From Octopus vulgaris (Eukaryota), in NCBI GenBank assembly GCA_951406725.2, contig OX597826.1, positions 58,900,001 to 58,964,000 of the forward strand: a stretch of 64,000 bases of DNA. Direction: 5' to 3'. Shown piece by piece: positions 14,105-64,000 of this stretch. Made by a program: the position numbers and the translations under genes. The number at the start of each line of letters is the position of its first letter. The stretch's first letter is position 1. The notes beneath the pieces were generated by a model, which was not told the origin of the DNA, did no database searches, and saw only the letters and a list, made by a program, of their open reading frames with translations.

Positions 14105-14109
<5 letters not shown>

Positions 14110-15598
14110 GGGAATAAATCCAAATTTACAGGAAAAAATCAGATTTAGGATTAAATCCAATTTTATAGTAAAATATTATATAATATTATTAGAGACAAAA
14201 CCACTATTTTGCAAAACAAACAAGGAAAGACTTAATCAATACATAAAATTTTAATAAATAGTAAAAAAAAACGCCACTACAATTGTTTCTTGTCTTGATC
14301 GACAATCTTCAGGTGGACTTCCAATCTAAAATATCAATATTTTAAAATATAAAAATAATAATTTTAAAATAATTAAAGTATTAATGAAAAAATATAAATA
14401 TATAATCTATATATAACCTATATATAATCCATATATAATCAATATATAAACAATATATAAACTAAAATAAACCTATCAACAATTAAATATAAAATATAAA
14501 ATATAAAATATAAAACAAAACAAAAAAATAAACTATATATACACCCATACACATATAACTAATTATATATAACCATATCTAAATACATACACTAAATCAC
14601 ACACCTATATATATATATCCCTATACATACACATAAAAACGTCTAGGCAACGATAAATAAATAAAATAGCTAAATACTTCAACACAATACTTATTCATAC
14701 TCCCCACACACGTACAACCCACATTCCCGCTCTAGAAACGGACATGTATATGTTGTGGTGTGTGGTTTACGTGTGTGTATTTGTGTGTGAATGTTTAGGT
14801 TAGGATTGCTATATAGGTATGTTATAGAGTTTAGTAAAGGAGATTTTATCATTATATGTTTTTATGAGTTTTGGTTTATCATGGTAGTTTTGTTAAGGAA
14901 TTAGTAGTAATTTGTGTCTATTTGCGATGTCTGTTGTTTTATTGCATTATTTCATTCATAATTTTTAAGTAGTGTTCGTTTTACCAAGTGAATATAATTA
15001 TTAATTCCATTTATTCCATTTCTCCGTTCATAATTTTAAGTGATGTCCGTTTCTAGAGCGGGAATGTGGGTTGTATGTGTGTGTGAGGGAGTATGAATAA
15101 GTGTTGTGTTGAAGTATTTAGCTATTTTATTTATTTATCGTTGCCTAGACGTTTTTATGTGTATGTATAGGGATATATATATAGGTGTGTGATTTAGTGT
15201 ATGTATTTAGATATGGTTATATATAATTAGTTATATGTGTATGGGTGTATATATAGTTTATTTTTTTGTTTTGTTTTATATTTTATATTTTATATTTTAT
15301 ATTTAATTGTTGATAGGTTTATTTTAGTTTATATATTGTTTATATATTGATTATATATGGATTATATATAGGTTATATATAGATTATATATTTATATTTT
15401 TTCATTAATACTTTAATTATTTTAAAATTATTATTTTTATATTTTAAAATATTGATATTTTAGATTGGAAGTCCACCTATTGTCGATCAAGACAAGAAAC
15501 AATTGTAGTGGCGGGTTTTTTTTTACTATTTATTAAAATTTTATGTATTGATTAAGTCTTTCCTTGTTTGTTTTGCAAAATAGTGGTTTTGTCTCTAA

Positions 15599-15605
<7 letters not shown>
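14105..15605. mobile_element. Penelope-like fold-back element, ~565 bp inverted arms (~14180-14745 / ~15043-15605) between (TA)n tracts
   Basis: Arms near-identical in reverse complement; ~300 bp spacer; HHR in each arm. Confidence 0.8.
14274..14316 (-). ncRNA. Minimal type I hammerhead ribozyme
   Basis: CCAC-CTGAAGA-TTGTC(GATCAA)GACAA-GAA-ACAATTGT-A-GTGG; intact core, palindromic helix III, GUA site. Confidence 0.8.
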
Positions 15606-27754: not shown

Positions 27755-27836
<82 letters not shown>

Positions 27837-27848
27837 TTGTATACAGCG

Positions 27849-28301
27849 GTGGTGTAATTTCCATACGAGACTGTCACGTTAAGTTGACAGTATACAACCA
27901 CACTATCGCTCCACCACCGCTCTTTTCTCTTTGAGACATTTAGAAATTTAATATTTCTGAATACGGTAACCAGTGAATAGATTTCACTGTAAATATATAT
28001 ATTTTTGAAAGCTGGACAGGCACCTCAGTCAGCAGATCTCACTATCCTGGGCTGATGACGGGTTAAGACCCAGAAACATGCATGTCCTCAGGTGTGAATC
28101 TTGGCTGGTATGGGTGCTTGCCTCTACTTCACAAATGGAAGGACACAGAAAATGTGTCAAAGCCGACAGGAAGCGTTCGATGCTTCCTAGTGGTGTAATT
28201 CCCATACGGGACTGTAACGTTAAGTTGACAGTATACAACCACTCTATCACTCCACCACCGCTCATGTCTCTTTGAGACATTTAGAAATTTAATATTTCTG
28301 A
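27849..28301 (+). mobile_element. Retrozyme-like element: 341-nt monomer plus 112-nt direct repeat
   Basis: 27849-27960 repeated at 28190-28301; canonical HHR inside; between (GA)n and (TA)n; no meaningful ORF. Confidence 0.8.
28046..28092 (+). ncRNA. Canonical type I hammerhead ribozyme
   Basis: CCTGGG-CTGATGA-C-GGGT(TAAG)ACCC-A-GAA-ACATGCATGT-C-CTCAGG; GUC site, predicted cleavage after 28086; helix I extends via TCAC/GTGA. Confidence 0.9.
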
Positions 28302-55948: not shown

Positions 55949-56008
<60 letters not shown>

Positions 56009-56234
56009 GAAATATTAAAATTACTAAGTCTCTCTAAAAGAGAACAACGGCAGCGTTCCCGGAAAATATTAGTTATCGCCATACTAATATGGCATTCTTA
56101 TAAAAATAAGAATAAAGCTGACCGCTTATTAGCTCCATGAGGCCATCGCCTTAAGTTAGCTATTTGATACACAAACTGTATCCATATAACCTTTGAACAA
56201 GGGAGGTCAGTCGCTCCACACTACTTGGCCGGCA

Positions 56235-56275
56235 GCTACAGACGCGTTTCGGGTATTGCCCCTTTTCAATGCAGC
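56235..56275 (-). ncRNA. Type I hammerhead ribozyme, U3:A8 variant
   Basis: GCTGCA-TTGAAAA-GGGG(CAATA)CCC-GAA-ACGCGT-C-TGTAGC. Confidence 0.8.
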
Positions 56276-56604
56276 GTAGCCAAACCAGTAGGTGTCGCTT
56301 CCGACAATCTCTGTTCAAAGGTTTTATTTACCTAGCTTCGGTGGAATACATCCACTTGTTTTCAATAATAGAAATATTAAAATTGTTAAGTCTCTCTAAA
56401 AGAGAACAACGGCAGCGTTCCCGGAAAATATTAGTTATCGCCATACTAATATGGCATTCTTATAAAATTAAGAATAAAGCTGACCGCTTATTAGTAATTT
56501 TAATATTTCTATTATTGAAAACAAGTGGATGTATTCCACCGAAGCTAGGTAAATAAAACCTTTGAACAGAGATTGTCGGAAGCGACACCTACTGGTTTGG
56601 CTAC

Positions 56605-56645
56605 GCTGCATTGAAAAGGGCAATACCCCGAAACGCGTCTGTAGC
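56605..56645 (+). ncRNA. Type I hammerhead ribozyme, U3:A8 variant (inverted copy)
   Basis: GCTGCA-TTGAAAA-GGG(CAATAC)CCC-GAA-ACGCGT-C-TGTAGC; GUC site at 56637-56639. Confidence 0.8.
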
Positions 56646-56806
56646 TGCCGGCCAAGTAGTGTGGAGCGACTGACCTCCCTTGTTCAAAGGTTATATGGAT
56701 ACAGTTTGTGTATCAAATAGCTAACTTAAGGCGATGGTTCATGGAGCTAATAAGCGGTCAGCTTTATTCTTATTTTTATAAGAATGCCATATTAGTATGG
56801 CGATAA

Positions 56807-56860
<54 letters not shown>

Positions 56861-57124
56861 TTATCGCCATACTAATATGGCATTCTTATAAAAATAAGAA
56901 TAAAGCTGACCGCTTATTAGCTCCATGAGGCCATCGCCTTAAGTTAGCTATTTGATACACAAACTGTATCCATATAACCTTTGAACATATATATATATGT
57001 ATGCACGTATGTATATATAAAATAATTTTATATATAAAATTAATAAAAATATATATATAAACATTTACAAGGTAGAATAACCATAAAACGATGTTTTATG
57101 AGGTGTCTACATACGTCTGTCATG

Positions 57125-61823: not shown

Positions 61824-64000
61824 TGGACTAAGTTTCATGGCCTGTTTTAGGTTGACATAGGATTGGAAAATGTAATAAAAATGCAGTAGTACCTTTGACG
61901 TTTTGTACTGATATTATTCTGATTGCCACCAACACTCTGTTTAAGCAGAAAAATAAATATAAAACAACCTGGATGCACCCAAGTTCAAAGCAATGGCATC
62001 TCATAGATTATATTCTGATCAGAAAACGTGATATGAAAGACGTTTCTAGTGTTCAGGCCATGAGAGGAGCAGTAGACTAGACTGACCATCATGCAGTGCG
62101 TGGAATAATAGATTTTTTGATAATGCTTAAAAATCGACAGTCTGGTTCTAAGGTACCCAAAAATGTTGCAAACTTTAAATTATCAAGCAAACTTTAAATT
62201 ATCAACTTGCAAAGATTCAACGATGCTATAGAGAGTATCAATCTTCATCCAAACAAAATATGGGAAGATTTCAAAACAAAAATATTTCAGTCTACAAGTT
62301 CGTCAGTGGGATTTAAATCACATAAGTCCAGTGATTGGTTCTCAGATAGATCAGAAGAAATTCATGATTTACGTTTAGAAAAACAAGACTTAGGCAATAC
62401 ATTTCTTTCCCTGTCCTTGAACCCCAACTCAAACGAAGCTCGCAGAAAGCCGAAAAGGAAAGTGCAGACTGCTCTAAGGAAAATTAAACAGGAGTAGCGG
62501 AATGATAGAGAAAAGGGAGCACAAGAAGCAGCTGATAGAAATGATGCCAAGAGTTTGTACTTTTACGTTAATGATGTATATGGCTCAAAATCTTCTTCAG
62601 TGAGAACAGCAAACGGACGTTTGCTTCTGATTGACACCGCTTCTAATCATAAGCGCTGGGTAGAGTTGACATGGGGACGATAGAAAACATCGAACACCTT
62701 CCAGTTATAGAAGAAAGTGCATTTGAACCAGTTCTAAATGATATTTATTTAGCTGTGAATAAGCTGAATAACAATAAGTTTCCAGGGTCTGATGGAATCC
62801 GTGCAGAGGTTTTGAAATATGAGGGTGACAAAATGTTTGAACTCTTAAATATATTAATTTGTCACTGTTACAGAACTGAGAAAGTGCCTCAAGACTGGAT
62901 TGATACCATTTTAGTATCCTTGTATAAATCATGGCCAAAGGATCTGTGTGGTAATTTTCGCGGGATTTTGCGTTTGTCTGTGGTTGGAAAGGTGCATGCC
63001 CGCATTTTGTTAGAAGGTTTAAATACCTTCATAGTTCCAAATATAGTGCCTGAGTCTCAGTGTGGCTTTCGTTCCTACAAAGGCACAGCTGATTGTATCT
63101 TTACTGTCAGACAATTACAAGAAAAGTGCATTGAACTGAATCTTGCTCCAAACCATTGGTTTGTTGATTTGAACAAAGCATTCGATACTGTTAATCGAAA
63201 TGTTCTGTGGCTAGGTTGCCCCCAAAATTTGTAAACATGATCAGGGCTTTGCATCAAGATATGAAAGCTAGAGTTAACCTTGGCGGTAGGCTCTCTGGAT
63301 CTTTTGACGTAAAAAATAGAATAAAGCAAGGAAACCTTGATGCACTCACCCTCTTTGCAATATACTTTGTTGTTGTGTTGTCAAATGATTTTCAAAACTA
63401 CGAGGAGAGTATTTACATAAAATATCGAACAACCAGGAATGTTTTTAATCTGAACAGACGGAAATTCAAAACGAAGGTTTTTACTTCACTAATTAGGGAA
63501 CGTTTTTACGCTGACGGTTGCAATCTTGTCGGTCATTCTGAAACAGGCCTGCAATCTCTTGTATCTGCATTTGTCTCGGCTTGTGATGGTTTTGGCTTGA
63601 CCATCAACTTGAAAAAAGCAGTTGTAATGCACCAACCTGCGTATGGTGCTGTTTGTAACCCCACCAAAACTTTTGTGAAGTGTAAGTTACTTGAGGTTGT
63701 CAATTCGTTCATCTACGTTGGAAGCTCTGTTCAAAATGATAGAAATCTTGATACAGAAATACACCTGCAAATTCAAAGGGCAGCAAAAGTATTTGGTGAC
63801 TTGGTGTCACGCGTTTGGTGCCAGTGACATATAAATAAGAATACAAAGCTGGCTCTTTACAAATCATTTGCCTTACCATCCTTGTTGTTTTCCTTTGAAA
63901 CTTGGACTTGTTATGAAAGTCATTTTAAATTGTTAGAACAACTCTACCAAAAATACCTTCATCGCATTTTGAAAATTAAATGGAATTCTTTTACACAGAT
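61824..64000 (+). pseudogene. Decayed RTE-type LINE: APE endonuclease C-terminus plus reverse transcriptase, runs off the window
   Basis: TNTLFKQKNKYKTTWMHPSSKQWHLIDYIL..DH; PGSDGI; PESQCGFR; FVDLNKAFDTVNR; KQG; FYADG (YADD mutated); GLTINLKK; stops and frameshifts. Confidence 0.9.

Follow-up and report, generated by a model that had tools for sequence, protein, structure and literature searches.

A young non-coding retrozyme of Octopus vulgaris, likely inserted by a Penelope-type enzyme that starts two cDNAs on a single, probably circular, RNA

Introduction

How does a short element that encodes no protein come to lie in a genome as two inverted copies inside a (TA)n tract, and what kind of machinery put it there? 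The question is raised by a locus at positions 56003-56987 of a 64,000-nucleotide stretch of the Octopus vulgaris genome (hereafter the window; contig OX597826.1, positions 58,900,001 to 58,964,000, forward strand). A first-pass annotation had proposed a retrozyme-like non-coding element, copied from a multimeric or circular template and integrated in the Penelope manner, and had attributed the inversion to template switching. Here we follow up this locus through the genome-wide copies of its repeat unit and through the Penelope-like elements (PLEs) of the same genome.

Much of the background is in place (papers are cited by accession or DOI, with reference to their openly accessible text). 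A link between retrozymes and PLEs is known (10.64898/2026.07.22.740005), and retrozyme circles have been demonstrated in coral, mussel and axolotl (PMC7229834). One-end tails and inverted copies have been described for PLEs (PMC8557442, PMC3846280), and one of these papers favours self-priming (PMC3846280). U3-A8 hammerhead variants and opposite-strand motif pairs 100-700 bp apart are likewise known for PLEs, the minimal PLE hammerheads are reported to cleave poorly, and circular templates for the PLE reverse transcriptase (RT) were proposed in 2014 (PMC4209133). A purified PLE enzyme, for which a dimer is predicted, was shown to cut both strands of AT-rich DNA and to extend them, reverse transcription beginning at two internal positions that define the genomic tail; in vitro the start site showed no difference between the strands, and hammerhead cleavage was dispensable for insertion (PMC11167929). 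The origin of the inverted and tandem structures of PLEs, and the use of PLE enzymes by retrozymes on circular RNA, are open questions in this literature (PMC8557442, PMC11167929, PMC7229834, 10.64898/2026.07.22.740005).

Results

Anatomy of the locus

Matching the sequence against itself resolves 56003-56813 into a single insertion in (TA)n, composed of a 492-nt arm and an inverted 323-nt arm with a 4-nt overlap. The direct repeat pairs 56003-56132 with 56365-56494 (period 362), the inverted repeat pairs 56066-56384 with 56813-56496, and a forward piece at 56854-56987 is an identical copy of 56066-56199. With 56007-56368 as the reference for unit numbering, the features are:

55955..56002, no strand: left (TA)n target tract
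56003..56494, minus strand: Arm A, 492 nt, from outer site A (unit position 360) through a full unit (56007-56368) and 126 nt further
56003..56065, minus strand: 63-nt "tail", the stretch from outer site A to outer site B, which only one arm carries at its outer end
56188..56323, minus strand: rod-like long stem around the hammerhead, unit 182-193 pairing with 307-318; its base is a hotspot of arm truncation
56235..56275, minus strand: type I hammerhead motif with U3:A8 core, 6-bp helix I and palindromic helix III; predicted cut after 56241
56491..56494, no strand: TTAG, the 4-nt microhomology of the inversion junction, unit position 126 joined to 21
56491..56813, plus strand: Arm B, 323 nt, inverted, from outer site B (unit position 60, at 56813) across the unit junction to position 21
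56605..56645, plus strand: second copy of the same hammerhead motif, in Arm B; predicted cut after 56639
56814..56853, no strand: (TA)20 tract that borders the two-armed insert on the right
56854..56987, minus strand: separate B-type piece of 134 nt that covers unit 60-193 and stops in the truncation hotspot

The boundaries of the tail are uncertain by a few nucleotides owing to the TA overlap. In Arm A the RNA is predicted to correspond to the minus strand, and the first cDNA would read along the plus strand. The unit is non-coding and has 41% GC; its longest ATG frame measures 38 aa on the predicted RNA strand and 77 aa on the opposite one. The hammerhead strand folds far better than shuffled sequences (z -6.8 as a linear and -7.1 as a circular molecule).

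These coordinates bear out the inversion near 56491 and the forward piece beyond the (TA)n gap that the first-pass annotation had described, and also its reading of an inverted arm that crosses the unit junction and carries TTACTAA where the adjacent partial unit has TTGTTAA. Its period of 362 is present in the window, but the family unit is 363 nt long, and each of the two hammerhead copies in the window lacks one base, in different helix II homopolymers; these losses may be mutations or base-calling errors. The allele difference had also been offered as evidence of template switching, and here the argument fails: TTACTAA is the family consensus and TTGTTAA is private to one pass (of 206 passes, a single one has G at unit position 17 and a single one has T at position 18), so the clue is uninformative.

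At unit 135-136 the third piece has the family allele where Arm B has a variant of its own, and it is therefore not a simple duplicate of Arm B. It is likely a further B-primed cDNA that stalled in the same TA tract; it is the only neighbour of its kind among the 88 loci described below, and TA tracts elsewhere have been reused by related elements (loci L109 and L042). A palindrome of 190 nt without mismatch (56739-56928), centred on the (TA)n, is likewise the sole case in the 88 loci. An extra G at 56250 is present in contigs of all four sequencing runs examined; the inversion junction is bridged by no listed contig of four runs.

A U3:A8 hammerhead motif in each unit

On the minus strand of the unit, the motif comprises helix I (GCUGCA/UGUAGC), the core UUGAAAA, a 4-bp helix II, GAAA, the palindrome ACGCGU and the cut triplet GUC. 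A type I scan of the 64-kb window matched hammerhead-shaped cores at 56269..56241 (minus) and 56611..56639 (plus) only; the scan is non-exhaustive, because it overlooked a canonical-core unit at about 28050 that we found by eye. The two opposite-facing hammerheads of the first-pass annotation are indeed of the U3:A8 type I form, with palindromic helix III and a GUC site, but they are the same motif met twice, in two inverted copies, and the idea of two different opposite ribozymes in one unit is ruled out. Rfam at its gathering score gave 0 hammerhead matches at the locus, and the matches below that score (miRNA-type) are hairpin artefacts.

Genome-wide, a degenerate U3:A8 pattern matched 9050 sites as against 200 for the reversed control (2.8-Gb genome), and by eye the centre of helix III was self-complementary in 93 of the first 100 of these sites, with 25% expected. 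The roughly 9000 sites span many PLE and retrozyme families, and the loci L236-L238, L215 and L242-L244 take in both a second PLE family and distant retrozyme-like units. In an alignment of 12 related motifs the core is invariant, U3:A8 included, 9 of 14 pairs have changed on both sides, and the palindrome centre varies (UA, CG, GC, AU) while staying self-complementary in 12 of 12. The covariation score was 0.46 against 0.19 for shuffled alignments, a control that overstates the significance because the sequences are related and the structure was supplied by the analyst. The motif is backed by this covariation, and its cleavage is predicted. Folding of a single sequence gives no active hammerhead, helix III reaching just 2 bp in the monomer; helix III forms only between two copies, via the 6-bp palindrome, as in the dimeric hammerheads already described.

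A young, dispersed and non-autonomous family

A 30-nt core of the retrozyme has 892 exact copies in the genome, and a 24-nt marker of the youngest subfamily occurs 178 times. A DNA search of the genome gave 1284 candidates, of which the best 40 were scored; these 40, together with 48 loci taken by genome order from two pattern lists, make up 88 unique loci (L051 and L079 were left out as duplicates). On average the copies diverge by about 1% from one natural unit (79 loci). This young family is scattered over many contigs, and a sister family of greater age, about 80% alike, ends at the same sites (30 loci retrieved, from 2115 candidates).

Non-LTR retrozymes are recognised by a tandem unit of about 150-450 nt with GC below 50%, a type I hammerhead, no protein, and dispersed insertions with target duplications of more than 4 bp; their RNA cleaves itself and is expressed in linear and circular form. 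The octopus unit measures 363 nt, and 80 of 165 aligned pieces are longer than one unit. Every unit carries the type I motif, to which Rfam is blind, its reading frames are the short ones given above, and its insertions are dispersed, with target duplications above 4 bp. As no examined copy is joined to an ORF with RT and GIY-YIG domains, the element can only be non-autonomous. We conclude that it is a variant of the non-LTR retrozymes that works like a non-autonomous Penelope-type element. Among the sequencing runs listed for the retrozyme sequence, none is recorded as RNA; the unit is covered by contigs of three runs guessed to be RNA and of one other, and such contigs are blind to strand, level and circularity.

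One arm from each of two fixed outer sites

In 72 of the 88 loci the element consists of two inverted arms whose cDNA starts point outward, towards the flanking DNA; the other 16 are single arms, eight starting at A and eight at B, and on reading these loci we found no second arm derived from another element. The outer ends gather at two points of the unit, position 360 (site A) and position 60 (site B), which lie 63 nt from each other. Among the 63 two-armed loci in which both outer ends lie at A or B, 61 are A+B, two are A+A and none is B+B (p 2e-16 against free choice), and the position-picked set of 48 loci gives a similar picture, with 38 two-armed loci, 34 of them A+B. In nine of the 72 two-armed loci one end is at neither site, which places them outside this test; L081 and L117 read as B+A if an inserted LINE or an internal jump is allowed. 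Variable permutation points had been expected from the first-pass reading; instead, the genome-wide copies have their outer ends fixed at two sites, and the inner junction alone varies.

This architecture is that of PLEs in several respects. The tail stands at one end and, as two internal RT starts would predict, is bounded by outer ends at unit 360 and 60; the inverted, 5'-truncated copy and the partial tandems are present in the two-armed majority; and (TA)n flanks both sides in 58 of the 61 A+B loci, a microsatellite or AT-rich target. With flanks that could be read, target duplications of 12-15 nt were found in six of the seven loci tested (two of the retrozyme family, and four of five of the sister family). 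The inner ends vary in position, but 35 of 138 pile up in unit 182-201, where the long stem around the hammerhead has its base; 2000 uniform simulations gave a maximum of 22. The lengths of the two arms are uncorrelated (rho 0.04).

L010 and L045, on different contigs, are nearly the same in their arms (1374/74 and 1375/74 nt) and in their junction (unit 282 and 133); one insertion may have been duplicated with its flank, or the junction may be recurrent.

Junctions, alleles and the template

At the 61 A+B junctions, the arms share an exact overlap of 2-6 nt in 38 loci and of 0-1 nt in six, and bases are inserted in 17. Microhomology of at least 2 nt is thus present in 38 of the 44 junctions without inserted bases, as against 17% by chance. 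In 11 of 61 loci no more than 20 nt separate the two joined ends, compared with 9.6 after permutation.

At four polymorphic sites the two arms agree in 21/21, 48/48, 23/23 and 27/29 loci, where 12.4, 26.0, 11.5 and 19.5 were expected, or in 119 of 121 comparisons overall against about 69; this suggests that one RNA, or at least one source locus, served both ends. Eighteen variants, each found in at most two loci, are common to all passes of their locus, and seven of these, each in a different locus, span the A and the B arm. Rare variants confined to single passes number 187. In L029, A and G alternate every second unit, in register in both arms, as expected of a dimer template. When 18 sites that vary within loci were compared with the expectation for a clean circle, L029 fitted fully, L007, L013 and L027 in part, and L028 and L070 did not fit. 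Taken together, the genomic allele patterns favour a template of one or two units.

The predicted cut site is crossed exactly in 147 of 160 passes and with added bases in none. Arms that stop there are not in excess (4 of 138 against 2.7 expected), and a cleaved linear monomer as template, whose arms would end at the cut site, is rejected. The longest arms run to 4.35 and 5.5 units (the latter in L232, where 13 substitutions are common to every full unit), and no large source array is found among the best 40 of the 1284 candidates.

Penelope-like elements in the same genome

A GIY-YIG PLE fragment adjoining one retrozyme copy led us to a young autonomous PLE family with an 811-aa frame, in which RVT_1 scores above cut-off and GIY-YIG weakly. 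Its linker, by eye C-x4-C-x2-C, suggests the Neptune or the Nematis clade (PMC8557442). The 3' end carries a hammerhead with the same UUGAAAA core as the retrozyme and an ACCGGU palindrome. Insertions lie in (TA)n and have two end sites about 40 nt apart, and all 11 classifiable two-armed loci are A+B, the tail-less arm being the longer one in six of them. These come from 21 PLE stretches; left unclassified were six single-armed ones, L161 (two arms of unlike age, both ending near B), L158 (complex), and L160 and L168, whose second end lies beyond the stretch. Copies of this family (L151-L170, for example G000:C4:142403800-142412800) are about 99.5% alike and have a 495-aa frame upstream that overlaps the 811-aa RT/GIY-YIG frame, an overlap which suggests a frameshift or an intron.

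At least two further PLE families have U3:A8 motifs; a second family has a 784-aa frame 57% identical to that of the first, and the young PLE families include the L151, L238 and L215 types. Across the families found by protein and pattern search (45 stretches, and the first 100 of the 9050 sites), no alignment of a PLE 3' end to the retrozyme 3' end scored above shuffles, so that it is the architecture alone that points to a PLE partner.

Some loci in this comparison are of separate note. The two same-strand hammerheads 6.6 kb apart in L231 belong to two separate retrozyme inserts with no ORF between them. A distant retrozyme relative (about 62%) with a similar two-armed layout adjoins a truncated PLE copy at L202:2151-2500. 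L031 and L048 share an A arm of 563 nt that stops at unit 196, and they resemble each other in a second end that is short and rearranged; both lie beside PLE-like sequence and were possibly carried along by another element.

Discussion

Based on these results, we consider it likely that the locus belongs to a young non-coding retrozyme which is inserted by a Penelope-type RT/endonuclease, priming two cDNAs on one, probably circular, RNA. The first-pass proposal of a retrozyme-like element with a multimeric or circular template and Penelope-type integration is in this sense supported, by the end rule, the PLE comparison and the covariation. In such a cycle, tandem transcripts would self-cleave as dimers and be ligated into circles; in the genome the 363-nt unit occurs in short tandem runs with the motif. 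The PLE enzyme would cut TA-rich DNA with a stagger of about 13 nt, where we find duplications of 12-15 nt, and each 3' end would prime cDNA internally, one at A and one at B, which is how the outer ends are paired. Each round of reverse transcription could run for a variable distance, up to four or five times round the circle, often stalling at the base of the long stem, and the two cDNA 3' ends would then be joined by microhomology repair at the junctions that now show 2-6-nt overlaps or short inserts. Several observations speak against this reading: one end lies at neither site in nine of the 72 two-armed loci, 17 of 61 junctions have inserted bases, the 63-nt tail exceeds the 30-40 nt of the literature, no PLE 3' end aligned with the retrozyme above shuffles, the allele patterns suit a clean circle in some loci only, and the purified PLE enzyme chose its start site alike on both strands and inserted without need of hammerhead cleavage (PMC11167929).

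One could go further, although we put this forward only tentatively and at slightly below an even chance, and read the insertions as a genome-scale record of the PLE cycle itself: an asymmetric RT/endonuclease dimer would sit on one RNA with one subunit per start site and make two rolling-circle cDNAs, one from either end of a staggered cut, the tail would reflect the spacing of the subunits, and the retrozyme, with its 363 nt, would be a minimal substrate whose RNA shape, and not any shared sequence, captures Neptune-type enzymes. If this is true, the RNA is a ribozyme-made circle of one or two units and the tail is no optional extension.

The template need not have been a circle for two cDNAs to be primed. 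The same enzyme could work on the uncleaved linear multimeric transcript of an existing tandem copy, with no circles involved, and the clean read-through at the cut site is equally expected of both. Insertion in vitro without hammerhead cleavage and the absence of reads ending at the cut site among RNA-seq reads of an anole PLE (PMC11167929), the poor cleavage of minimal PLE hammerheads (PMC4209133) and the aperiodic allele patterns in L028 and L070 would all suit a linear template. We nevertheless regard it as unlikely. Since arms reach 4.35 and 5.5 units with no large source array among the best 40 candidates, arrays copied from linear transcripts would shrink every generation; the 13 substitutions in all full units of L232, together with the private variants that run through all passes of a locus, point to a monomer bottleneck; and the helices and the palindromic helix III are kept by compensatory change. 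Homogeneous units could also arise from a uniform tandem transcript or from gene conversion, and the circular template, taken on its own, is a reasonably probable element of our reading. The inversion is also where a single cDNA that folds back or switches template and then copies itself has to be weighed, akin to the self-priming favoured for inverted pLTRs (PMC3846280). Arms made in this way would likewise share alleles, and palindromes at inverted junctions are known in rotifer Penelopes (PMC3846280). The geometry allows it in 40 of the 61 loci, the window locus included (492 against 323 nt), but makes it impossible in the other 21 and in six of the 11 autonomous PLE loci, where the tail-less arm is longer. 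Because of these arm lengths, which are moreover uncorrelated, of the longer tail-less PLE arms, and of joined ends that are no more hairpin-like in their proximity than chance (11 of 61 against 9.6), fold-back is excluded as the general route, and template switching, to which the first-pass annotation had ascribed the inversion, is not borne out as its cause. At the window locus itself, TTGTTAA and the helix II deletion would be expected in Arm B had it been copied by fold-back, and both are missing there, a weak point that may come down to later mutations or base-call errors. Altogether we hold this route to be very improbable.

An error of assembly, or the later rearrangement of a plain tandem satellite, seems to us the least probable of these accounts for the window inversion and the third piece. 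The end rule recurs, with locus-specific junctions and microhomologies, in 61 loci, in the sister family and in autonomous PLEs, the two-armed inserts carry flanking target duplications, and the third piece is without Arm B's own variant; these weigh more than the junction that no listed contig bridges, the 190-nt palindrome around (TA)n that is unique among the 88 loci, and the homopolymer losses that may be base-call errors.

In L1 twin priming, both 3' ends of the target prime cDNA, and the outcome is an inversion joined at microhomology and flanked by a target duplication; the internal site to which the second primer anneals varies, and there is no overlap between the arms. The retrozyme differs in that its starts are fixed, 63 nt apart, and both arms copy the same sequence. 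With metazoan non-LTR retrozymes (PMC7229834; 10.64898/2026.07.22.740005) it shares a non-coding tandem unit of 363 nt and 41% GC, one type I hammerhead per unit, a highly self-paired RNA (z about -7), target duplications above 4 bp and co-existing PLEs. It departs from them in a PLE-type minimal U3:A8 motif with purely palindromic helix III, as against the canonical C3:G8, in insertions that are mainly two-armed inversions with fixed A/B ends, and in being known here from genomic copies. The partial tandems, the inverted 5'-truncated copy, the one-end tail, the (TA)n targeting and the hammerhead upstream of two start sites are those of EN+ Neptune-type PLEs (PMC8557442, PMC11167929, PMC3846280), and the same end rule governs the co-resident autonomous family. 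Unlike these PLEs, the retrozyme has no RT/endonuclease ORF, its tail is 63 nt long as compared with 30-40 nt in the literature, and no sequence similarity was detected between it and the autonomous 3' ends examined. In the accessible text of the PLE papers the tail is "optional" or "often at one end", whereas here one of each end is nearly strict. The U3-A8 core covariation, the palindromic helix III for dimer folding and the opposite-strand pairs 100-700 bp apart are those of minimal PLE hammerheads (PMC4209133), from which our motif is set apart by its place in a short unit that multimerises, where it caps a long rod, and by helices I and II of 6 and 4 bp.

The ingredients (retrozymes, U3-A8 hammerheads, tails, inverted copies) are all known, and the value of the present family is an unusually clean mechanistic record. 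The strict A+B rule, the same-haplotype arms, and the tail-and-inversion scars of PLEs on a retrozyme did not turn up in searches of the open literature, and the PLE reviews of 2005-2006, Repbase/Dfam and the supplements of the 2026 preprint may hold more. "Twin priming" has 0 occurrences in the open PLE-focused papers searched, the word "inverted" is absent from the main text of the 2020 retrozyme paper (PMC7229834), and the main text of the 2026 octopus repeat annotation contains no hammerhead, ribozyme or retrozyme (PMC13282606). Importantly, retrozymes and PLEs are now tied together by the anatomy of their insertions and not by mere co-occurrence, and the rule is a sharp one, with one arm per start site and both arms of one haplotype, which rejects fold-back as a general route. 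As the RNA is short and non-coding and young PLE frames are present in the same genome, the model is open to direct testing with the in vitro assay already established for PLEs.

Other elements in the window

Three further elements lie in the same 64 kb. At 27834-28300, between microsatellites, there is another tandem unit with a period of about 341 and a 116-nt overlap at 93%; its canonical-core hammerhead-like motif, at about 28050-28090, is the one overlooked by the type I scan, and the unit is probably what the first-pass annotation had counted as its first retrozyme. At 14107-15600, a PLE-like two-armed inverted insert lies in (TA)n, with 574-nt arms of 97.7% identity, only one of which extends further at its outer end, by about 70 nt; on the minus strand, at about 14270-14320, it has a hammerhead-like motif with canonical core, which is damaged in the other arm. 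Finally, 62653-63827 holds broken LINE-type reverse transcriptase frames on the plus strand.
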